Source: Anaerolineales bacterium (GTDB lineage: Bacteria > Chloroflexota > Anaerolineae > Anaerolineales > UBA11858). Taken from it: 64,000 nt of DNA. Shown piece after piece: positions 1-39,412 of the stretch. The notes below the pieces were generated by a model. That model worked only from the letters and a program-made list of their open reading frames with translations. It was not told the DNA's origin and did no database searches. The translations under genes were made by a program, and so were the position numbers. The stretch lies in contig JAWODY010000074.1 of assembly GCA_046483045.1 (NCBI GenBank), positions 6,391 to 70,390 of the forward strand, written 5' to 3'. Each line of letters begins with the position of its first letter. Position 1 is the first letter of the stretch.

Positions 1-639
1 ATCGCCAAACAGCAGGCCTATGGGATCGTGGGCCTGGACGGCTTAGCCGGTCCCACGGAAACCATGGTCATCGCCGATGAGAGCGCCAACCCTGAATGGG
101 TAGCCAGCGACCTGCTGGCCCAGGCGGAACACGACGTGCTGGCCAGCGCCATCCTCCTCACTCCCTCCCGGAAGCTGGCCCTGACTGTGCAGCGGGAAGT
201 GGCCCAGCAGGTCGAGACCCTGTCCCGGGCTGAGATCATCCTCCAATCCCTGGAAAACAAAGGCGGAGCGGTGATCACGCCTGACCTAGAGACCGCCGCA
301 AAGCTGGCGGATGACTATGCCACTGAACACCTCTGCCTGGCGGTGAAAGACCCCGTTGGTCTGGCGGAAAAGATCAACAACGCAGGAGGATTTTTCCTGG
401 GCGACCACTCCTTCGAGGTCCTGGGAGATTACGTGGCCGGCCCCAGCCACATCATGCCCACGGGAGGGACCGCTCGCTTTGCTTCTCCGCTGAACGTGAT
501 GGATTTCGTCAAAATCAGCAGCATGGTGACCCTAGATCCGGACACCGGGAAAGATCTCAGCCCCACCGCAGCCCGAATTGCCCGGATGGAATCCCTCACC
601 GCACACGCTGCCAGCGCAGATTTCAGGAGTGAATCATGA
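1..639 (+). CDS. hisD: Histidinol dehydrogenase, C-terminal part (5' end outside window)
   Basis: The frame is open from base 1 ([27 protein letters not shown]...DLLAQAEHD), matching the conserved HisD 'GPSE...ADxxAxP..vA.DLLsQAEH' region. The TGA stop overlaps the hisC ATG (ATGA at 636-639). Confidence 0.9.
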
Positions 640-30959: not shown

Positions 30960-31826
30960 ATGAACAAACCTCCCGATTTCGCTGTGATAGGGGGTTCGGG
31001 TTTATATGACATCCCCGGATTATCAGACACACAAGAACATGACCTGGAAACCCCCTTTGGGAAACCCAGCGCTCCCGTCATGACGGGGGTCCTCCGGAAT
31101 CAAAAAATAGCCTTCTTGTCCCGTCATGGAATAGGCCATCAATTGAGCCCCAGTGAAGTGAATTACCGGGCAAACATTTACGCCCTGAAAATGCTGGGAG
31201 TGCAGCGGGTGATCAGTGTTAATGCCTGTGGGTCCTTAAGGGAAGACTACCAACCCGGGGATCTGGTCGTTCCCCACCAGTTGTTTGATTTTACGAAGAA
31301 CAGGATCAATACATTTTTTGAGGGAGGATTAGCAGCTCATATTGGTACTGCGGATCCTTTTTGTAAGGACCTTTCAACCCACCTCCTCGAAGCCTTGAAC
31401 TCAACGGGCGCTACCGTCCACAACCAGGGGGCTTTCATCACCATTGAAGGACCCCGATTTTCAACGCGGTTGGAGTCCAACACATTCCGGACCTGGGGGA
31501 TGTCCATTATCGGCATGACCACAGCTCCCGAGGCATTTTTAGCCCGGGAAGCGGAGCTCTGTTACGCCTCTTTAGCTCACATTACAGATTACGATGTCTG
31601 GCACACGAGCGAAGAACCTGTTACCGTGGAGATGGTTTTGAGCATCATTCAGCAAAATACAGAAAACGTCAAAGAAACCATTCAGCATTTAGCGGCGAAT
31701 CCTATGCCGTCTGAAACATCCTGCACCTGCTCTCAGGCCTTGAAAAACGCTGTGATCACAGATCCTGAAGCCATTCCTGAGAAAACCCGTTCAAAACTTG
31801 AGTTGTTAATTTCCAAATATCTCTAA
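30960..31826 (+). CDS. mtnP: S-methyl-5'-thioadenosine phosphorylase
   Basis: Contains 'FAVIGGSGLYD', 'FLSRHG.GH...PSEVNYRANI.ALK.LGV', 'ACGSL' and 'IGMT..PEA.LAREAE.CYA'. Confidence 0.9.
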   Translation: MNKPPDFAVIGGSGLYDIPGLSDTQEHDLETPFGKPSAPVMTGVLRNQKIAFLSRHGIGHQLSPSEVNYRANIYALKMLGVQRVISVNACGSLREDYQPGDLVVPHQLFDFTKNRINTFFEGGLAAHIGTADPFCKDLSTHLLEALNSTGATVHNQGAFITIEGPRFSTRLESNTFRTWGMSIIGMTTAPEAFLAREAELCYASLAHITDYDVWHTSEEPVTVEMVLSIIQQNTENVKETIQHLAANPMPSETSCTCSQALKNAVITDPEAIPEKTRSKLELLISKYL

Positions 31827-31859
31827 GCCAGGTTAACATTTGTGAACTAACCCATTCCC

Positions 31860-32216
31860 ATGGAACCAGATGTTATCCGTGAATTAAAAACAGGAGACAC
31901 CGCCAACTTTGCGGGGGTATTTGCTGCCAATCGAGAGGCTGTGCATACCTGAATGGTCGATACCTTCAATGATAAGTTGAGGAAACCCAAAGGGGAGGCA
32001 CAGGAAGCGGTCGCTGTCAGACCAAAGACAAGCATTTGGAAAGAACCTTATCAGAGGAAAGTCATGCTCCATTTTGACCTGCGGGGTGTGATCGGCAAAG
32101 GGGGATTAGGATCCCAGACCCTCCAGTCCTGTCTAGATATACCCGCAGCCTATTTCCACACTATGGGCGAGGTAGTTGATCGCCGAATCTGTGGAGAAGG
32201 TACTGGATGTTTATAA
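31860..32216 (+). other. Interrupted reading frame (in-frame TGA at 31950-31952), possible decayed gene
   Basis: ATG 31860 gives 30 codons (MEPDVIRELKTGDTANFAGVFAANREAVHT), then TGA, then the same frame continues from ATG 31953 for 87 codons. See findings. Confidence 0.3.
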
Positions 32217-32367
32217 ATTAGATTTTGGCGTGTCTGAAGCCATCCAAGTCCTCCATGTCAAAGATTTACCCGCTGTGGTGACTATGTACGCTCATGGGAA
32301 CAGCATTCACGATGAAGTAGAAGCGAAATCGAAAGCCAAGCTGCAGGACCTGATAAAATACTCATAA
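32176..32367 (+). CDS. Small hypothetical protein (63 aa) or 3' part of a frameshifted gene
   Basis: A TTG-start ORF in the +1 frame relative to 31860..32216, overlapping it by 41 nt. It is followed 27 nt later by a strong plus-strand terminator. Confidence 0.35.
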   Translation: MIAESVEKVLDVYKLDFGVSEAIQVLHVKDLPAVVTMYAHGNSIHDEVEAKSKAKLQDLIKYS

Positions 32368-32394
32368 CCTAGAGGATGATTATGACTATTTTTA

Positions 32395-32428
32395 GAGATG
32401 TGAGATGTATTCACATCTCCTTTTTTTT
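32395..32428 (+). terminator. Intrinsic terminator
   Basis: gagatgtga-gatgtat-tcacatctc, a 9-bp stem followed by T8. Confidence 0.85.
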
Positions 32429-32634
32429 CTGGCCATCAGAAAACATACTATGGAGCTTAACGAATCCGATCACTAAAATAAATAAAAATGGTCCTATCAA
32501 TCATCACAATTAAGAATTTGTTAACCAGGCAAGTGCCTTTTTAGGATAAGATGTAGATGCTGTAGTTGAAGAAAAGGTCTTTTCCCTTCAACAGTATCAA
32601 AACTACGTACCTCACATCATCTAGGTCGTAAATA

Positions 32635-33183
32635 ATGTCTTCAAAAGAGAAAAATTTATTACAGCGAGCCCGAAAGCTTGACAGCAAAGCCCTGGGAATT
32701 ATCTACGACACTTACAGTGACAAATTGTACGCATACGCTGTCAGAAGGGTGGGAAACGCTCAACAAGCGGAGGACTTCGTCGCTGAAACGTTTTCAAGAT
32801 TTTTGCAGGCATTAAAAAGCGGTGGAGGACCAAAAGACCACTTACAGGCCTACCTTTATAGAATCACCCACAACCTGATAACAGATCATTACCGCAGGGA
32901 ACCTCCCCCTCCCCTGGAATTGGATGAAGACAGATACAGTGAGGACCTTGGTCAACCCGCAGACATCTTAACGCAACAAATAAAAGCTGAAAGGCTCCAG
33001 AAAGCCCTCCAGCATCTAACCCCCGGGCAGCAGCAGGTTATCATGCTTAAATACATAGAAGGATTCAGCAATCAGGAAATTGCGGAAACGATGGAAAAAT
33101 CACCAGGTGCTGTAAGGTCACAAGCCCACCGCGCTCTTGCTTCTCTTGAAAGGATTCTGGTCGATGAGGAAGATGAATCATGA
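32635..33183 (+). CDS. ECF-type RNA polymerase sigma-70 factor
   Basis: 182 aa. Region 2 reads 'ALGIIYDTYSDKLYAYAVRRVGNAQQAEDFVAETFSRFL...YLYRITHNLITDHYRR'. Region 4 HTH reads 'LTPGQQQVIMLKYIEGFSNQEIAETMEKSPGAVRSQAHRAL'. Confidence 0.9.
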   Translation: MSSKEKNLLQRARKLDSKALGIIYDTYSDKLYAYAVRRVGNAQQAEDFVAETFSRFLQALKSGGGPKDHLQAYLYRITHNLITDHYRREPPPPLELDEDRYSEDLGQPADILTQQIKAERLQKALQHLTPGQQQVIMLKYIEGFSNQEIAETMEKSPGAVRSQAHRALASLERILVDEEDES

Positions 33184-34163
33184 CCAATCACAATATACAA
33201 CCTGAATTAAATGAATATCTCAAAGCTCTCAAAGAAAAAGTGCCGCAGCGCGACCCAGAAATGGCAGCCAAGGGGCGGGCTAATTTTCTTTCGGAAGTGA
33301 AAGAACTCCAAGCGAAGAAATCAACCCCCTGGTTGGCTGAAATTTTTGCAGCGATCTTCTCTTTGCCGATTCAGGCCAACCGGCGTCTGGCAACCGCTGT
33401 CGCCAGCATTCTCACCGCGATCGTTCTTACTTTCGGGGCAGTGGGGGGAACGGTGTATGCCTCTCAGGACAGCCTGCCAAAACAAACACTTTACGCTGTA
33501 AAAACACTCACCGAAGATATCAGGCTCAGATTTTCAAAACAACCGGAAGAAAAAATTAGATTACTGGAAAAGTTTGCCAATCGAAGGGTAGAAGAACTAT
33601 CCGCGCTTTCAGAGAAAGAAGAAGAATTTCCCGAGGAGACGATTACTCGCCTGGAGCAGCATACAGAAACCATACTTAAGATAGCTTCTAAACAGGAAGG
33701 AAAAGAGTTGACCCAATCATTGAAAAAAATCCGGAAGTCTCTCCAAGCACAGGAAGAGATCATATCCAAACTGGCAAACATGGAGCATGGAAATGCTGAC
33801 AAGAAACTAACGCAGGTGCAGAAAAAACTACGGGAAAAAATCCATCTTGCTGAGGAAGGCCTGGACAATCCAGCTGCTTTTCGAAAGAAAATGAAGAGCA
33901 CAACACCTTTCACCCCGGTAGAGACCCTAAAACCCGGGAAACCAGAAGAAACTAGGACGCCTGAAAATAAGCGGAAACCGGTTGACCGCGGCACCCCAAT
34001 TTGGAAAGGAAAACCTGACCAGGTTGGCACGCCAGATCATAAAGGGAAACCGGGAGAGGCTGGACAACAGGAGAACAAGGGGAAACCAAACGAGCCAGGC
34101 TCACCAGATGACAAAGGGAAACCTGAAGATCCGGGTCCGCCGGATGATAAAAGAGGACCATGA
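33180..34163 (+). CDS. Single-pass membrane protein, DUF5667-like ectodomain, putative anti-sigma/sensor partner, with GKP-repeat tail
   Basis: ATGA overlap with the sigma gene. It has a cytoplasmic N-terminus of about 70 aa, TM 'LATAVASILTAIVLTFGAVGG', 'SQDSLPKQTLYAVKTLTEDIRLRF' and a helical region. The C-terminal tail carries four 12-aa repeats starting GKP. Confidence 0.65.
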   Translation: MTNHNIQPELNEYLKALKEKVPQRDPEMAAKGRANFLSEVKELQAKKSTPWLAEIFAAIFSLPIQANRRLATAVASILTAIVLTFGAVGGTVYASQDSLPKQTLYAVKTLTEDIRLRFSKQPEEKIRLLEKFANRRVEELSALSEKEEEFPEETITRLEQHTETILKIASKQEGKELTQSLKKIRKSLQAQEEIISKLANMEHGNADKKLTQVQKKLREKIHLAEEGLDNPAAFRKKMKSTTPFTPVETLKPGKPEETRTPENKRKPVDRGTPIWKGKPDQVGTPDHKGKPGEAGQQENKGKPNEPGSPDDKGKPEDPGPPDDKRGP

Positions 34164-34501
34164 GAAGAGAACGACCATAATTTTAAGCAAATTTACGAAA
34201 TTCATATTAGACATATAACCTCTCAGCCTACAAACTACCCCATCTATTCCATCCTCCTATAACCTCCTCAGAATCAGGAAGATTCTCCTGAGGGTGAATG
34301 GCAGCGTTACCTCAAAATGCTTCCTGGCTCCACGCCTATCCTTTGATAACCAAATATTCGCCTTCTCCTCAAAACCACCATCTCAACCTTAAAAAATTCA
34401 GATATTTAACAAACACCCGTAACAATCTGGTCTTTTTCGCGTCATATAGAGTGAAAGAAAGTCAGAAAAAAGGGAATTTAAGTCCAAAACCAGGAAAAAT
34501 A

Positions 34502-35446
34502 ATGGCTGAAGAAAGGAAATACCCGATATTAAATGAATATTTTGAGGCTCTAAAAGAAAAAGCTCCTCAGCGTGATGCAGAGCAAGCCGCTAAAGGGCGG
34601 ACCCATTTCCTGGCGGAAGCGAAGAGCCTGCAAAAACCCCAATCGACATCCTGGTTAGCGGACTTCCGAAAGACGCTTGCTTCCCTACAAATCAGGGGCA
34701 ATCGCCGTTTAGCCACCGCTGTCGCCAGCGTTTTGATTGCTCTAATCATCACCCTGGGGTCCGTTGGAGGAACTGTATACGCTTCCCAAGACAGCTTGCC
34801 AACTCAAACCCTTTACGCTGTAAAGACATTAACTGAGGATATACAACTGCGATTTGCAGATCAGGCCCAGGAGAAAATTGACCTCCTGGAAAAATTCACG
34901 AACCGCCGCGTTGATGAAGTGACCGCATTGGCCGAACGGGGCGAGGATATCCCCCAAGATACGATCTCTCGTTTTGAACAGCACACAGAGACCATGCTGC
35001 AGCTCTCCGCGGAATTAGAGGATGAAGATCAAGCCCAAACGCTTTCCCATATTCGCAACGCGCTGCAAGTTCATGAAGAAGTCATTCAAAAGCTCGCCGA
35101 GCGAGAATCGGGGAAAGCGGGAGAAGCGCTGCGTATGGTCCAGGGAAGGTTGCAGTCACAGATACAACGCATCGAAGAAGGAATGCTGGACCCAACCACT
35201 TTTCAAGAGAACAATCAAGATCAGAATCCCTTCAAGCCATTCGAAACCCCTCCGTCCGGAAAGCCTGAAAATATTGGACCGCCCGAAGAAAAAGGGAAGC
35301 CGGATGGGGTTGGCACACCGGACCACAAAGGCAAACCGGAGGACGCCGGCACACCAGAGAGCAAAAAGGGTCCAGAAAGTGACCCCCCTGATGGCAATGG
35401 ACCTCCCGATGAGGTTGATCCTCCAGCCGGCGGAGGAAAACCATAA
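34502..35446 (+). CDS. Paralog of 33180..34163 (DUF5667-like membrane protein with GKP-repeat tail)
   Basis: From ATG 34502 (MAEERKYPILNEYFEALKEKAPQRD...) it is collinear with the upstream paralog. Shared runs include 'NRRLATAVAS', 'GGTVYASQDSLP', 'QTLYAVKTLTEDI' and 'EQHTET'. Confidence 0.65.
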   Translation: MAEERKYPILNEYFEALKEKAPQRDAEQAAKGRTHFLAEAKSLQKPQSTSWLADFRKTLASLQIRGNRRLATAVASVLIALIITLGSVGGTVYASQDSLPTQTLYAVKTLTEDIQLRFADQAQEKIDLLEKFTNRRVDEVTALAERGEDIPQDTISRFEQHTETMLQLSAELEDEDQAQTLSHIRNALQVHEEVIQKLAERESGKAGEALRMVQGRLQSQIQRIEEGMLDPTTFQENNQDQNPFKPFETPPSGKPENIGPPEEKGKPDGVGTPDHKGKPEDAGTPESKKGPESDPPDGNGPPDEVDPPAGGGKP

Positions 35447-35533
35447 ATGAACGTCCAAGACCATACTGCCTATGATGAAGAACAACCTCAGTAATTATTT
35501 AGTCTTTCGATCACCGAAAGAAAGGAGAAAGAT

Positions 35534-36313
35534 ATGAAACACAATAGGCACATTCTCACCAGTTTTATGCTCATCTTAACCCTACTGCTCACAGGGTTCA
35601 CCAGCCGGGCCGTTCAAGCGGAAACCCCGGATGAGTACGAATTTTCGGGCATCGTGGAAACGGTAAGCGAAGATGGCTTCACCTTCCTGACTGAAGACGA
35701 CATTCTGATCTCCGTGAGTGCGATAGAAGAGGATGAAGGAAACTTCTTCTTCACGCTCACCGTGGGAGAGGAAGACCCCCTCACCATCTCTGTAGATGAA
35801 GATTTCGATTTTGGCGTCATCGAAGAGGGTGGCGAATTCGAACTCGAGGTCAAGTACAACAAAGAGACCGAGGAATGGACTGTATACAAACAAAAATTCC
35901 AGGAGCGGGAACGCGAAGAAGACGGGTACTTCTGCTCCGAGGACACTGAAGAGCAACATCCAGTAGCTTTAGCCATCGCCGAGAGCTATGACACGGATTA
36001 TGAATCCGTGATCGGAATGTTCTGCGAAGGACAGGGTGAAGAGGGCAGCGCCCGGACCGGATTCGGGCAGATCATGCTGGCCTACCAGACCGCGGGAGAG
36101 ACCGGGGGAACAGCTTCCGAGATCTTGAGTGAACGCGCGGAAGGCAAAGGTTGGGGGCAAATTTGGCAGGACCTGGATTTGATCGGGAAACCTGAAGACG
36201 CTGGAAAACCTGATCACGCCGGAAAACCTGACGATGTAGGGAAACCCGAAGGCGTAGGTAATGGAAAACCAGAAGGCGCCGGGCCCCCAGAAGAAGCGGG
36301 CCCGAAACACTAA
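35534..36313 (+). CDS. Exported acidic protein: beta-rich N-domain + shared about 60-aa domain + KP(D/E)xxG repeat tail
   Basis: Signal peptide 'MKHNRHILTSFMLILTLLLTGFTSRAVQA'. The central part is 'HPVALAIAESYDTDYESVIGMFCEG...GQIMLAYQTAG...GWGQIWQDLDLIG'. The tail is 'GKPEDAGKPDHAGKPDDVGKPEGVGNGKPEGAGPPEEAGPKH'. 'aaaggagaaag' lies upstream. Confidence 0.7.
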   Translation: MKHNRHILTSFMLILTLLLTGFTSRAVQAETPDEYEFSGIVETVSEDGFTFLTEDDILISVSAIEEDEGNFFFTLTVGEEDPLTISVDEDFDFGVIEEGGEFELEVKYNKETEEWTVYKQKFQEREREEDGYFCSEDTEEQHPVALAIAESYDTDYESVIGMFCEGQGEEGSARTGFGQIMLAYQTAGETGGTASEILSERAEGKGWGQIWQDLDLIGKPEDAGKPDHAGKPDDVGKPEGVGNGKPEGAGPPEEAGPKH

Positions 36314-36334
36314 TCAAGCATTGACGTAGATCTC

Positions 36335-36380
36335 TGTGAGAGGTGACGCTCTCTCGCCCATGGGGAGCGTTCCTCTCACA
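36335..36380 (+). promoter_or_regulatory. Long intergenic hairpin (possible attenuator or stabiliser) between two cluster genes
   Basis: The outer stem tgtgagagg/cctctcaca (9 bp) plus the inner acgctc/gagcgt (6 bp), with no U-tract. It starts 22 nt after the 35534..36313 stop. Confidence 0.4.
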
Positions 36381-36395
36381 ACACTTGAAACAACT

Positions 36396-36812
36396 ATGAA
36401 AAAGAAACTTTTCATTCTCGTTATCCTGATACTCATTGCGCTGACCGCTTGCGATAACTCACTCCAAAAAGCGACCCAGCAAGTCCTGGGCAAAGAGGAA
36501 CGCAACACACCGACTCCTCCTCCAACAGAGGAAGAAAATGAGGCAGAACAATCGGAAGAGGAAAAAAATACCTCTGCGTGCCCAGAAGAAGATCCACAAC
36601 CCATCGCTGTCAGTATATCCGAAAAATTTGACGTCTCTTATGAAAAAGTAATCGATTGGTATTGCGATGGTTACATTTTTGAAGATATCTTACTAGCTTT
36701 GCAAACGAGCAAAATGTCGGACGTGGAACCCGACACCTTGCTGAAAGAAATTGAGGCAAAAACCTGGGAAGAGATTTGGGATAACTTAGGGATCACGAAT
36801 CCTAAGGAATAA
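36396..36812 (+). CDS. Lipoprotein carrying the shared about 60-aa domain
   Basis: From ATG 36396: 'MKKKLFILVILILIALTAC' (lipobox), an acidic linker, then 'PIAVSISEKFDVSYEKVIDWYCDGYIFEDILLALQTSKMSDVEPDTLLKEIEAKTWEEIWDNLGI'. Confidence 0.7.
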   Translation: MKKKLFILVILILIALTACDNSLQKATQQVLGKEERNTPTPPPTEEENEAEQSEEEKNTSACPEEDPQPIAVSISEKFDVSYEKVIDWYCDGYIFEDILLALQTSKMSDVEPDTLLKEIEAKTWEEIWDNLGITNPKE

Positions 36813-36847
36813 TTAAACGAATCATAGATTAAAGGTAAAGGTGAAAT

Positions 36848-37051
36848 ATGAATGAGAAAGATACCCAAAAATACGAAGTGTCCCAACAAGAACTCATGGA
36901 ATGGTACAGCGGGGGAAGATCATTCCAAGACATCATGAAAGCCCTTCAAACCAGCCAGCTATCCAATATCCCGCCAAAAGAATTATTGACCCGCAGCATA
37001 AACCAGAGCTGGGAAGAGATTTGGAAAGAAATCGGGGTATTGCCCGCCTAG
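36848..37051 (+). CDS. Stand-alone copy of the shared about 60-aa domain (67 aa, no signal peptide)
   Basis: 'KYEVSQQELMEWYSGGRSFQDIMKALQTSQLSNIPPKELLTRSINQSWEEIWKEIGV'. 'aaaggtgaaat' lies upstream of the ATG. Confidence 0.6.
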   Translation: MNEKDTQKYEVSQQELMEWYSGGRSFQDIMKALQTSQLSNIPPKELLTRSINQSWEEIWKEIGVLPA

Positions 37052-37142
37052 ATTAATATCATAGAGGGGGGCAATAGAAATGTGTCTTGATTCTAATTTT
37101 CCAGATTCATCCCTCAGGTGTGAATACCTGAGGGTGATCACT

Positions 37143-37301
37143 TTAAGACCTGTCGTCAAGCATCTCCCGATACACAGAGATCTTTCTCTTCACGCGTCGG
37201 ATCCGGATAAAGAGTTGGAGTAAGTACCCCAAGATAAAACTAAAGATAACCGCATATCCAGCAATCATGTACTGATATGTATCCATGATTTCTAATCCCA
37301 T
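37143..37301 (-). CDS. ccmD: Heme exporter protein D-like small membrane protein (not in supplied ORF track)
   Basis: 52 aa: MGLEIMDTYQYMIAGYAVIFSFILGYLLQLFIRIRRVKRKISVYREMLDDRS. It has one TM helix followed by a basic stretch. 'aaaggagaagg' lies 5-15 nt upstream, and it starts 19 nt after the ccmC stop. Confidence 0.65.
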   Translation of the reverse strand: MGLEIMDTYQYMIAGYAVIFSFILGYLLQLFIRIRRVKRKISVYREMLDDRS

Positions 37302-37319
37302 GTAATCCTTCTCCTTTGT

Positions 37320-38018
37320 TCAACTCATCAATTCCAAGCGGAGTTTATTCATCATGGATTCTAGCTTTTCCAACCTGATCCGGTGCCAGAGCACATCCGA
37401 AAAGAGAACAGAAAACGTGAATAAACTGAAGAAAAATGTTATTTTCATAGACTCTGTCATGCTGAACCCTCCCCCCGCAGTCGGGTCACCAGCGCCGATC
37501 ACCACAGGGTGAATGGTGCGCAGCATCCGGATGGAAACAAATGTCAACGGCACACTGACAAAACAAAAGATCGCATATACCGCAGAGAATCGAGCCTTTT
37601 GTCGTGGTTCGTCAATAGCCTGACGCAGTAAAAAATAAGCCCCATAGATCAGCTCCACCACAGCTGCTGTGGTTAACCTGGGATCCCACGTCCACCACGT
37701 ATTCCAAATCGGCCTGGCCCAAATGGAGCCAGAAATAATGGCAATGAAAAAGAAAATAAAACTTATTTCAACACTAGAAAAACCAATCATGTCCCATATT
37801 TTTTCCCTGCTGAGAATATACATGACGCCCATGAGGGCTGAAACAAAGAACCCCAACATCCCCACCCATGCAGTAGAGACATGAAAATAAAACACTTTTT
37901 GGACAGCACCCATACTACGTTCCAACGGAGCATAGAAAAATACCAACAAAACAGCCGCCAAAAAACAAATAACGGTAATCCCATCCAACAGGGAAAGGAA
38001 ACGGGGTTTTTCTTCCAT
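37320..38018 (-). CDS. ccmC: Heme exporter protein C
   Basis: 232 aa polytopic protein with the Trp-rich motif 'WARPIWNTWWTWDPRLTT' and conserved His contexts. Confidence 0.9.
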   Translation of the reverse strand: MEEKPRFLSLLDGITVICFLAAVLLVFFYAPLERSMGAVQKVFYFHVSTAWVGMLGFFVSALMGVMYILSREKIWDMIGFSSVEISFIFFFIAIISGSIWARPIWNTWWTWDPRLTTAAVVELIYGAYFLLRQAIDEPRQKARFSAVYAIFCFVSVPLTFVSIRMLRTIHPVVIGAGDPTAGGGFSMTESMKITFFFSLFTFSVLFSDVLWHRIRLEKLESMMNKLRLELMS

Positions 38019-38699
38019 TTACGACCACTCCTCTACCACATATTCAAACAACATAACAGCGACTGCAGTAAATATCAGATCATAGACAATAATGACATTC
38101 AGCCAGGTCATGATCCATGGCCCTGGATATCCTTCTAAATAACCGATGCTCGCTTTCACCGCGGGGATCAGGATCGGGATCGTGAGAGGAAAAAGCAGGA
38201 TCGGAAGTAAGATATCGTGCGTTCGGGCCTGAACACTCATGGCAGCCAGAAGGGTCCCTACCGCAATATAGCCTATCGAACCCAATAACACCACCAGCAG
38301 GAAACCGGGGACTAACATGTTGACATTGAAAAGGACGCTGTAGATTGGGAGGACTATCACCTCAACTACCAGCAAAAATATTAAATTACCAAGCGCTTTC
38401 CCGACGTATAACGCGCTGCGATCTACAGGTGCCAATAATAAACCATCCAAGCATCCCCCCTCCCTTTCAGAAGCCATGGATCTATTTACACCCAATGTGC
38501 CGGCAAACGTAAATGTCACCCATAAAACCCCCGCTGTGACGGATTCTTGAGCCTGGACATCCAAATCCAGAGCAAAGTTAAATATGAGTATTACCAATAA
38601 AGAAAAAACCAGCATAGACGTAAGAATTTCCTTGTTCCGGGCCTCCCCAACCATATCCTTCCAAACCACCGTTATCACGGTCCTGAGGTAATTTCTCAC
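38019..38699 (-). CDS. ccmB: Heme exporter protein B
   Basis: 226 aa, six predicted TM helices, CcmB-like 'KD...E.R.KE' N-terminus. It abuts ccmC and overlaps ccmA by 4 nt. Confidence 0.85.
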   Translation of the reverse strand: MRNYLRTVITVVWKDMVGEARNKEILTSMLVFSLLVILIFNFALDLDVQAQESVTAGVLWVTFTFAGTLGVNRSMASEREGGCLDGLLLAPVDRSALYVGKALGNLIFLLVVEVIVLPIYSVLFNVNMLVPGFLLVVLLGSIGYIAVGTLLAAMSVQARTHDILLPILLFPLTIPILIPAVKASIGYLEGYPGPWIMTWLNVIIVYDLIFTAVAVMLFEYVVEEWS

Positions 38700-39412
38700 A
38701 ACCGCTCTCCCCCTCTCCTCCGGACAGCCTCCCGGTAAAACATCAGTAGTCGATCCATGTCTATTTTCTCTTCCTTTACAGAAGCCACGATCTTACCTCG
38801 AGAGAGGACATCAAACCGCGATGCCAGATTGGCAACCTGGGCTAAATCGTGAGAGGTGACAAGAACAATCCGGCCTTGTTCACTCATATGCAGAAGGACA
38901 TCGTTCAACATTCGCACGGAATCCTGGTCCAAGCCTGTGTGTGGTTCATCAAAAAGTAAAATTTGGGGTTCATGTAAGAGGGATCTACCCAGGGCTAAAC
39001 GCTGAACCATGCCCCGCGAAAATGTCCGCACTAGATCAGCGCCTCGGCGTTGCAAACCTACCATGTCCAAAACCTGTGTAGCCCTTTGTCGATAATCAGA
39101 CACGTTGTAAAGGCGGCCATAAAACCAGAGATTTTCCTCCGCTGTGAGATCGCCGTACAGCAGGGGTTGATGGGAGACAAACCCTAATCGTTCTCTAACC
39201 CAATCAGCCTCTTGGGGCAACTGAAAACCCGCGACACTCACCTCCCCCCCATCTGGACGGAAAAGCGACGACAGGATACGGAGGAAGGTTGTTTTACCAG
39301 ATCCATTTGGCCCCAAAAGGGCTACAAGTTCACCCTTCTCCACTTGAAAATCCAACCCGTTCAGGACACGTTTATGACCAAAACGCTTCCGGAGATTCCG
39401 CACTTCAATCAT
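38696..39412 (-). CDS. ccmA: Heme exporter ATP-binding protein A
   Basis: Walker A 'GPNGSGKTT', signature 'FSRGMVQRLALGR' and Walker B 'LLFDEP'. Supported by its position next to ccmB and ccmC. Confidence 0.85.
   Translation of the reverse strand: MIEVRNLRKRFGHKRVLNGLDFQVEKGELVALLGPNGSGKTTFLRILSSLFRPDGGEVSVAGFQLPQEADWVRERLGFVSHQPLLYGDLTAEENLWFYGRLYNVSDYRQRATQVLDMVGLQRRGADLVRTFSRGMVQRLALGRSLLHEPQILLFDEPHTGLDQDSVRMLNDVLLHMSEQGRIVLVTSHDLAQVANLASRFDVLSRGKIVASVKEEKIDMDRLLMFYREAVRRRGGERL

Follow-up and report, generated by a model that had tools for sequence, protein, structure and literature searches.

What role do proteins of no characterised family play beside a sigma factor of the extracytoplasmic function (ECF) type and its membrane partners? 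The question is raised by a six-gene cluster within a 64,000-nucleotide stretch of the genome of an Anaerolineales bacterium (Chloroflexota; assembly GCA_046483045.1, contig JAWODY010000074.1, positions 6,391 to 70,390), hereafter referred to as the window. The cluster consists of a sigma factor gene and five genes here designated B to F: two paralogous membrane proteins (B and C), a secreted protein (D), a lipoprotein (E) and a small leaderless protein (F). An initial annotation, prepared from the sequence alone, described the locus as a self-contained envelope-signalling or envelope-remodelling regulon with effectors of no nameable function, and all six same-strand open reading frames (ORFs) were recovered at the positions that it gave.

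Comparative sequence analysis identified the locus as a real, conserved envelope-signalling gene cluster. The signalling module is of an ordinary type; what is new is an undescribed and structurally novel domain family, named WEEIW here after its W-[EG]-[EQ]-I-W motif, and the systematic link of that family to one ECF clade. We put the chances at about even for a reading of this locus as an ECF sigma / membrane anti-sigma module in which the WEEIW proteins D and E represent detached ectodomain modules of the sensor.

The WEEIW domain family

Within the 64-kb window, only D, E and F contain the W-[EG]-[EQ]-I-W domain. A profile built from these three copies and searched against 1.84 billion representative proteins recovered 1,217 clusters (50% identity) at E<=1e-3, of which 533 reach E<=1e-10; a word-indexed homologue search with the WEEIW profile returned 24 matches only. 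The family consensus, C-x5-HP-vg..lAe.YgV.Yee.M.WFC.G.GFGEI.LA......gv..eel.......GWGEIW.elGl, has the appearance of two related helix-loop-helix halves and includes a near-invariant pair of cysteines, with column 30 occupied by Cys in 206 of 207 sequences. Both D and E match the consensus over its full length with both cysteines, behind a signal peptide or a lipobox. The domain spans about 75-85 aa in D and E, more than the 60 aa or so first estimated, while F holds a shortened copy.

AlphaFold2 (AF2) modelled the WEEIW domain of E as five helices with a mean predicted local distance difference test score (pLDDT) of 91.2 and a predicted template modelling score (pTM) of 0.79. A Foldseek search of this model against the PDB yielded no fold neighbour (best E ~1, template modelling (TM) score <0.5), no model in Pfam or NCBIfam covers the domain, and we found no literature on it. 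The proposal that D, E and F lie outside characterised families was thereby upheld by Pfam, NCBIfam and PDB fold searches alike. Membership in the DUF433, LysM and E3_binding families was considered and rejected: these matched at sub-threshold scores only (5, 2 and 1 of 46 diverse members, respectively), reflecting a shared helix-loop-helix flavour.

In nearly every member of the family, the domain stands behind a signal peptide, a lipobox or a transmembrane helix. This placement, together with the near-invariant cysteine pair, indicates that the WEEIW domain is extracytoplasmic, and the two cysteines probably form a disulfide staple. The conserved Cys, His and Cys were also considered as a metal site, a reading dropped because the His is replaced in E and in approximately 20% of the family.

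Fusions and conserved gene neighbourhoods

Domain architectures were counted in the top 150 WEEIW representatives. These comprise 59 small single-domain proteins like E (39 with a lipobox), about 42 D-like proteins (signal peptide, N-domain, one or two WEEIW copies) and 47 fusions, of which 32 have the order transmembrane helix-DUF5667-WEEIW and 15 the order transmembrane helix-FecR-DUF5666-WEEIW. In the fusions, which come from Chloroflexota, WEEIW forms the C-terminal, membrane-distal extracytoplasmic end of a single-pass protein. The window holds as separate genes what is elsewhere fused in one sigma-coupled protein, namely the N-domain, transmembrane helix, DUF5667, DUF5666-like domain, WEEIW domain and Lys/Pro (KP) tail.

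A metagenome scan keyed only on WFCQG[YF]GF, a pattern typical of the fused subfamily, yielded 64 loci, in which 37 WEEIW genes are complete at the 5′ end and preceded by 700 nt or more of sequence. For 30 of these 37 informative genes, the start lies no more than a few bases from the stop codon of an ECF sigma gene, mostly with an 8-nt overlap; 20 encode FecR-DUF5666-WEEIW proteins and 10 encode DUF5667-WEEIW proteins. Among GTDB species genomes, 11 WEEIW loci were found, all in Chloroflexota, and five of them present the sigma / DUF5667 / WEEIW neighbourhood. One locus (L009) contains four WEEIW genes, and another (L015) has its WEEIW gene oriented divergently to the sigma pair. Relatives with protein identities as low as 49-63% still show the cluster layout, which is kept in loci L001, L008, L009, L010, L011, L015 and L084. 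The neighbourhood is therefore conserved among Chloroflexota, and this conservation is accompanied by gene fusion to sigma-coupled membrane proteins.

A BldN-like sigma factor and its DUF5667 partners

Pfam analysis of the sigma factor revealed Sigma70_r2 (residues 23-89) and Sigma70_r4_2 (residues 119-171) and no other domain, and the match to TIGR02937 (100.8 bits; cutoff 42.9) places the protein among the ECF (group IV) sigma-70 factors. Among NCBIfam models, TIGR02952 (BldN family) ranks first with 135.9 bits, the next one scoring 35 bits lower; the top score falls short of the curated cutoff of 206.45 bits and leaves the protein outside the BldN equivalog. BldN is also the closest PDB relative (6DXO_A, from the RsbN-BldN complex; E 1.4e-20, runner-up 2.5e-14). 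In BldN itself, an N-terminal pro-sequence extension is removed by proteolysis (subgroup 1; PMC7826278). No pro-sequence of this type (BldN family / ECF121, subgroup 1) is present on the window sigma, in which the sigma-2 domain begins at residue 23 of 182.

TIGR02952 is likewise the best model (122-157 bits) for the sigma of every other locus linked to WEEIW, and the sigmas from the metagenome loci share only 26-35% identity with the window sigma. This combination indicates that the WEEIW domain is used by several lineages within one BldN-like sigma clade.

The stop codon of the sigma gene and the start codon of B overlap as ATGA (33180-33183), in agreement with the translational coupling proposed in the initial annotation. 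B and C, first described as DUF5667-like, turned out to be DUF5667 proteins proper (PF18915; Pfam gathering score 27), with 54.0 bits for B (residues 98-216) and 47.4 bits for C, and an identical protein in NCBI carries the name 'DUF5667 domain-containing protein'. The two share 53% identity (E 2e-114) and have the N-domain, transmembrane helix, bundle and tail in common, so that C is indeed a paralogue of B placed after a 338-nt spacer, as the peptide runs common to both had suggested.

The AF2 model of B, built on a 37-sequence alignment, comprises N-terminal helices at residues 8-19, 26-45 and 51-60 (pLDDT ~50), a transmembrane helix at 68-86, further helices over residues ~105-240 (pLDDT >90) and a tail at 243-327 (pLDDT ~35). 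The conserved cytoplasmic core covers about 45 residues with the pattern L..af..L..vP.pD...qa..R..FL..a and matches nothing in Pfam or the PDB, and a basic NRR stretch precedes the transmembrane helix. B shows the operational traits of an anti-sigma factor: its gene overlaps that of the sigma, and it is predicted to be single-pass with the N-terminus inside.

Known anti-sigma families were sought in both partners. Residues 1-66 of B and of C contain no cysteine and hence no class I zinc-binding anti-sigma (ZAS) motif (HxxxCxxC), as already noted for B; zf-HC2 or RskA-type models gave no Pfam match at E<=1 in either protein. FecR (PF04773) is absent from B and C and present in other WEEIW-bearing proteins only. 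Searches of the PDB by phmmer with B and with a 13-sequence N-domain profile did not find chain B of 6DXO at E<=10, and Foldseek searches with the B and WEEIW models returned only generic helical-repeat or 14-3-3 matches (TM score <0.5, E >0.02), which were rejected as uninformative. A literature search on DUF5667, DUF5666 and PF18915 found nothing relevant.

Starting in reverse from homologues of B (~25-50% identity), we found that four of four share a locus with an ECF sigma, one of these contigs probably coming from outside Chloroflexota. Three immediately follow the sigma gene, overlapping it by 4-8 nt or standing 5 nt apart, and the fourth represents the second DUF5667 gene in a locus arranged like the window. 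Other DUF5667 proteins and the FecR-type partners have longer N-domains, which are mutually homologous (hhalign probability 97.9%). The sigma of L083, which is 62% identical to the window sigma, has a partner with a type-1 N-domain and no WEEIW. The sigmas of L085 and L015, whose partners have a type-2 N-domain, share 36-51% identity with the fusion-class sigmas but only 26-31% with the window sigma. From these comparisons, the sigma clade follows the N-domain type of the partner, not the make-up of its ectodomain. The gene overlap, the reverse test and this co-variation collectively point to B as the partner of the sigma.

A sigma/DUF5667 pair with an ATGA-type overlap was observed at L086 (5453-7200), on a contig whose other genes (for tRNA and ribosomal proteins, and of TraG/TrwB-like and DUF87 type) point to a quite different organism, possibly of the Candidate Phyla Radiation (CPR) type. 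On this evidence, DUF5667 appears to be a general ECF sigma partner beyond Chloroflexota.

A shared ECF-type promoter motif

Upstream of C, an island of ~110 nt is shared by the window, L008 and L001 (by far the more distant of the two loci), and the remaining spacer has diverged. The island contains a predicted promoter, GTAAC-N16-CGTC, conforming to the general ECF pattern of AAC in the -35 and CGT in the -10 element. It is the sole GTAAC-N15-17-CGTC site in the window, and a single site is not significant alone, with at least one occurring in 40 of 100 shuffles. The motif recurs, however, ahead of the C-like gene in L084 and the DUF5667 gene in L010. The sigma ORFs of L009, L010 and the DUF5667-WEEIW fusion loci have it 10-15 nt upstream, and two sets of unlinked WEEIW genes, those of L003 and L005, have it 120-130 nt upstream. 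In 592 kb of loci, TAAC-N16-CGTC has 38 sites, 18 of them correctly oriented and no more than 250 nt upstream of a cluster gene, against means of 14.2 sites and 0.34 upstream of a cluster gene (maximum 4) for 143 scrambled-motif controls. This corresponds to an approximately 50-fold enrichment upstream of cluster genes.

The initial annotation had envisaged sigma-dependent promoters before 34502, 35534 and 36396. The first is represented by the conserved motif; the other two are not, as no ECF-type motif was found before D, E or F. C, D, E and F are accordingly more likely to form one operon, and the conserved ECF-type promoter before 34502 leads us to predict that the genes downstream of it are sigma-dependent. 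Because unlinked WEEIW genes of relatives carry the same motif, the regulon is probably not fully self-contained. The reading as an envelope-signalling cluster is otherwise supported, and none of the refuting outcomes named in the initial annotation that computation can address was observed.

A degenerate version of the motif precedes the sigma gene itself. It carries two mismatches, one of them in the -10 CGT, and aligns with GTACC-N16-CGTCAT of L001 and with the consensus TAAC-N16-CGTC of L009 and L010. This site, of doubtful function, may represent an autoregulatory promoter that has weakened or been lost, and its degeneracy makes autoregulation of the sigma-B pair doubtful in the window lineage. 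Autoregulation may have weakened after the anti-sigma gene was duplicated.

Two observations were made on the motif in related loci. At several of them (L009 3966, L010 5197, L070 1947, L072 2903, L076 5231 and others), the predicted -10 element ends 10-15 nt before the sigma ORF, so the sigma mRNAs would be leaderless or very short-leadered. In the fusion loci, a second GTAAC-N16-CGTC lies inside the anti-sigma ORF, ~230 nt from its start and just before the part encoding the transmembrane helix (L070 2767, L072 3726, L074 4172, L076 6069, L079 6039, L081 6063). Its GTAAC and CGTC letters are kept despite a differing peptide (VTNRNPFRL vs VTIFEPIRL), and it could be a sigma-dependent promoter yielding an isoform without the sigma-binding domain.

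Proteins D, E and F and the charged tail

The signal peptide of D, the lipoprotein nature of E and the 67-aa, leaderless character of F were each confirmed. In D, the signal peptide is followed by a predicted beta domain, an acidic linker, the WEEIW domain and a repeat tail. D itself gives no match to Pfam DUF5666 (PF18914; gathering score 27), while five of ten D-like relatives give sub-threshold matches (15-23 bits) and hhalign aligns the D-type N-domain with DUF5666 at a probability of 87.7% (E 3.4e-6). The D N-domain is probably a divergent DUF5666, and through this resemblance D mirrors the ectodomain of the FecR-DUF5666-WEEIW fusions.

E has the lipobox LTAC with Cys19 (MKKKLFILVILILIALTAC), which conforms to the lipoprotein motif [LVI][ASTVI][GAS]C. 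Twenty-one homologues of E were found, every named one from Anaerolineales, and a protein identical to E is present in an Anaerolineales metagenome-assembled genome (MAG). F consists of a shortened WEEIW domain alone and lacks both conserved cysteines, the HP motif and a leader; it matches WEEIW columns 15-76 only, the first 14 being missing. A good Shine-Dalgarno sequence precedes F, which is kept at 67 aa in L008 and L001. Synonymous to non-synonymous codon changes there number 10:5 and 17:21, respectively, and this excess of synonymous changes over expectation indicates that F is under purifying selection.

The two modules said to link the five non-sigma genes are both present and are distributed among them, the W-[EG]-[EQ]-I-W domain in D, E and F and the Lys/Pro/acidic tail in B, C and D. 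In D, the tail is encoded by an 18-nt tandem repeat (36184-36251). A GKP[DE][DE]x tail of ~14 near-perfect copies also ends P0064, an unrelated 207-aa signal-peptide protein from a Proteobacteria MAG. Judged by this occurrence on an unrelated protein, the GKP tail is an independent, mobile low-complexity module. By analogy with the Pro-rich region of TonB, the KP tails are probably extended spacers. Long antisense ORFs over the tail regions of B, C and D (33491-34030, 35156-35485 and 35969-36310, all on the minus strand) most likely arise from the skewed composition of the repeats and are not true genes.

Proposed mechanism and alternative explanations

A mechanism consistent with the observed gene order, protein families, topology signals, fusions, promoter conservation and co-variation of sigma clades with N-domain types would run as follows. 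The sigma would be co-translated with B, a type-II single-pass protein whose short helical N-domain would hold it at the membrane, with the DUF5667 bundle and the extended Lys/Pro/acidic tail of B facing the envelope. An envelope cue would free the sigma, which would then transcribe C-D-E-F from the GTAAC-N16-CGTC motif at 34419-34443. C would serve as a second anti-sigma copy providing negative feedback, as rsbN does for BldN. The secreted D and the lipid-anchored E would act with the ectodomains of B and C, sensing or tuning the signal, with a putative contact between WEEIW and DUF5667 domains. Detached ectodomain modules are the most likely identity of D and E because many relatives have WEEIW at the membrane-distal end of their sigma-coupled partner. 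The proteins D, E and F, initially called effectors, may thus lie on the sensing side rather than, or besides, the output side.

Several points weigh against this anti-sigma and split-sensor model. The AF2 confidence for the N-domain of B is low (pLDDT ~50), this N-domain is similar to no solved anti-sigma domain, RsbN in 6DXO included, and its similarity to the N-domains of the fusion class is not significant (hhalign probability 4-7%), so that we claim no homology. Domain fusion cannot tell a sensor role from the anchoring of an output domain, and F, which has no export signal, is unfit for an ectodomain role. Six of the 11 GTDB loci have no sigma or DUF5667 gene within 8 kb, with tandem WEEIW pairs in five, and the 30/37 proportion from the metagenome scan overstates linkage family-wide. 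Finally, the site upstream of the sigma gene itself, from which the sigma-B pair might be expressed, is degenerate.

Of the alternatives, the one that we regard as possible, with a clearly smaller share of the probability, keeps the same sigma/anti-sigma pair and treats the WEEIW proteins as its output, that is, as abundant envelope or surface proteins, secreted or lipid-anchored and with extended KP tails, which the sigma would switch on as BldN does the chaplin and rodlin sheath proteins; the fused forms would simply display the domain on a membrane anchor. D, E and F do lie downstream of the predicted sigma-dependent promoter, and the unlinked WEEIW genes of L003 and L005 carry the motif as expected of regulon members; many family members are small stand-alone lipoproteins, WEEIW pairs occur without a sigma nearby, and small secreted paralogues, in families, are under BldN control (PMC6101532, PMC4125116). 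However, about one-third of the top members have WEEIW as the C-terminal domain of a sigma-coupled membrane protein, a typical sensor position, the domain is neither hydrophobic nor amyloid-like, there is no sign of high abundance, and F is leaderless. The fusion and promoter data do not separate the sensor and output readings, and both could hold. It is improbable, in our estimate, that B and C are instead no anti-sigma factors at all, being sigma-associated envelope scaffolds or regulon members, with the sigma controlled transcriptionally or by a factor encoded elsewhere. Such a role would fit the failure to detect a known anti-sigma domain in B or C, the short N-domain with its low model confidence, and the position of C, like a target gene, behind a promoter of its own sigma's type. 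Yet sigma and partner genes overlap by 4-8 nt in three sigma lineages, the predicted topology is N-in with the conserved part cytoplasmic, sigma clades co-vary with the N-domain type of the partner, and it is normal for anti-sigma genes to be targets of their own sigma, as exemplified by rsbN (PMC6101532).

The idea that unrelated genes came to lie side by side by chance, with low-complexity tails as their sole common feature, deserves almost no credence. The KP tail is indeed of low complexity and is found on unrelated proteins such as P0064, but the layout is kept in the seven loci L001, L008, L009, L010, L011, L015 and L084, gene fusions and a common promoter motif tie the genes together, and WEEIW is modelled as a well-defined globular domain (pLDDT 91) rather than a low-complexity region. 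We rejected this explanation as already refuted by the conservation and fusion data. A bolder version of the sensor model, which we hold to be rather unlikely as a whole, would make WEEIW a new sensory module of a Chloroflexota-wide BldN-like clade. In this split sensor, sigma-induced D and E would dock on B and C, F would act as a cytoplasmic decoy or anti-anti-sigma, and the 45-66-aa N-domain would constitute a fourth, minimal anti-sigma class.

Locus boundaries and neighbouring genes

The cluster forms a bounded unit, as first proposed, with an intrinsic terminator on its 5′ side and convergent cytochrome c maturation (ccm) genes on its 3′ side (Table 1). The terminator consists of a 10-bp stem at 32395-32419 (4 GC pairs) with a 5-nt loop, followed by a T8 run. 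The ccm genes match Cytochrom_C_asm, CcmB and ABC_tran in Pfam; a link between them and the cluster was rejected, the synteny being kept in close relatives only. An Rfam scan of 31500-38000 (E<=1) gave one chance-level match only and thus no RNA element in the B-C spacer, and a sigma-70 promoter scan found no match on the plus strand.

Table 1. Coordinates of the cluster genes, their predicted domains, candidate promoter elements and flanking features (positions in the window)
Feature	Residues	Position	Strand	Description
Intrinsic terminator		32395-32428	+	Terminator of the preceding unit; 5′ boundary of the cluster
Degenerate ECF-type motif		32594-32620	+	GTATC-N16-CATCAT; ends 14 nt before the sigma start codon
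Sigma gene		32635-33183	+	ECF (group IV) sigma factor, 182 aa, BldN-like
B		33180-34163	+	Single-pass membrane DUF5667 protein, 327 aa
B N-domain	1-66	33180-33377	+	Predicted cytoplasmic
B transmembrane helix	67-89	33378-33446	+	
B DUF5667 domain	~98-240	33471-33899	+	Helical bundle
B tail	243-327	33906-34160	+	Lys/Pro/acidic; predicted disordered
Promoter and leader island		34390-34501	+	Before C; conserved
Predicted ECF-type promoter		-35 at 34419-34423; -10 at 34440-34443	+	GTAAC-N16-CGTC; 58 nt before the ATG of C
C		34502-35446	+	Second DUF5667 membrane protein, 314 aa; longest ORF from 34298
D		35534-36313	+	Secreted protein, 259 aa
D signal peptide	1-29			Ends ..AVQA/E
D DUF5666-like domain	30-122	35621-35899	+	Beta domain; acidic linker after
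D WEEIW domain	133-218	35930-36187	+	Profile match
D tail		36188-36310	+	GKPxxx hexapeptide repeat
E		36396-36812	+	Lipoprotein, 138 aa
E WEEIW domain	61-138	36576-36809	+	Acidic linker present
F		36848-37051	+	Leaderless protein, 67 aa
Cytochrome c maturation genes		37143-39412	-	Convergent; small ORF, CcmC-like, CcmB, ABC ATPase; 3′ boundary

Just 5′ of the cluster, a Fumerase_C gene appears as two overlapping ORFs (31953-32216 and 32176-32367), the second of which alone matches the C-terminal end of PF05683. Relatives have an intact 207-aa Fumerase_C gene (L001 3213-3836, L084 3749-4372), and the split in the window is probably a frameshift or an assembly error. Genes resembling those of Flp pili were observed near related loci: Tad, TadE and TadE-Calx-beta genes stand divergent beside the sigma/DUF5667 pair of L083 (606-5075), and Tad-type genes directly follow the WEEIW gene pair that carries the ECF-type promoter motif in L003 (2251-6653). 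Judging from these positions, the regulon of some lineages may include Tad/TadE genes.

Significance

ECF sigma/anti-sigma pairs are a main route of bacterial envelope signalling, and their sensing domains are mostly uncharacterised outside model phyla. WEEIW is a large family with a confident predicted fold that lies outside Pfam and NCBIfam and is tied to a BldN-like ECF clade by fusion and a common promoter. Our analysis provides a first functional context for this family and links DUF5667 and DUF5666 to sigma regulation. GTAAC-N16-CGTC offers a testable regulon motif, and the series of split versus fused arrangements is natural material for studies of anti-sigma ectodomains.

Comparison with known systems

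Very short helical cytoplasmic segments that bind sigma without a zinc motif are known from the minimal (class II) anti-sigma factors CnrY and NepR (PMC6101532). The N-domain of B, with 66 residues and two to three predicted helices, is likewise short, but neither protein shows sequence or profile similarity to B. The tails of B, C and D invite a different comparison. TonB has a Pro-rich spacer of Glu-Pro / Lys-Pro repeats, an extended, charged repeat in the envelope compartment. The GKPxxx tails are likewise extended, charged and proline-rich, and that of B is predicted to be disordered; the window repeat, however, is a hexapeptide and stands at a free C-terminus rather than between two domains.

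Resemblance to FecR-family regulators is seen in the many WEEIW proteins with the order transmembrane helix-FecR-DUF5666-WEEIW that directly follow a BldN-like ECF sigma, and D resembles the outer half of such a protein. In contrast to these regulators, B and C have a DUF5667 bundle and not FecR, there is no TonB-dependent receptor partner, and the host belongs to Chloroflexota.

In the SigI/RsgI systems of cellulolytic clostridia, the anti-sigma factors carry interchangeable C-terminal extracellular sensor modules, and the same families occur on sigma-controlled secreted proteins. WEEIW shows the same dual distribution, on anti-sigma-like proteins and on proteins behind a sigma-type promoter. 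SigI differs in not being an ECF factor, and the N-domain and carbohydrate-binding modules of RsgI are known families.

The reference for the sigma itself is the Streptomyces venezuelae pair Sigma-BldN / RsbN (PDB 6DXO; assigned to ECF121 in the Casas-Pastor scheme), whose RsbN homologues have been reported as confined to Streptomyces (PMC6101532). The window sigma differs in scoring below the family cutoff (135.9 vs 206.45) and in having no BldN pro-sequence (PMC7826278). On the partner side, the N-domain of B is ~66 aa long as opposed to 117 aa and has no sequence similarity to RsbN(1-91). The class III domain of RsbN comprises three helices, the long one clamped between sigma-2 and sigma-4; B has three AF2 helices at pLDDT ~50. 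The predicted regulon here consists of WEEIW proteins, whereas that of BldN consists of chaplins and rodlins. Despite these differences, BldN is both the closest solved relative and the best NCBIfam model of the window sigma, and both partners are single-pass proteins with a large ectodomain and a helical N-domain that matched no earlier anti-sigma family. The rsbN gene is a target of BldN (PMC6101532), and in both systems the anti-sigma or putative anti-sigma gene lies behind a promoter of its own sigma's type (PMC6101532).

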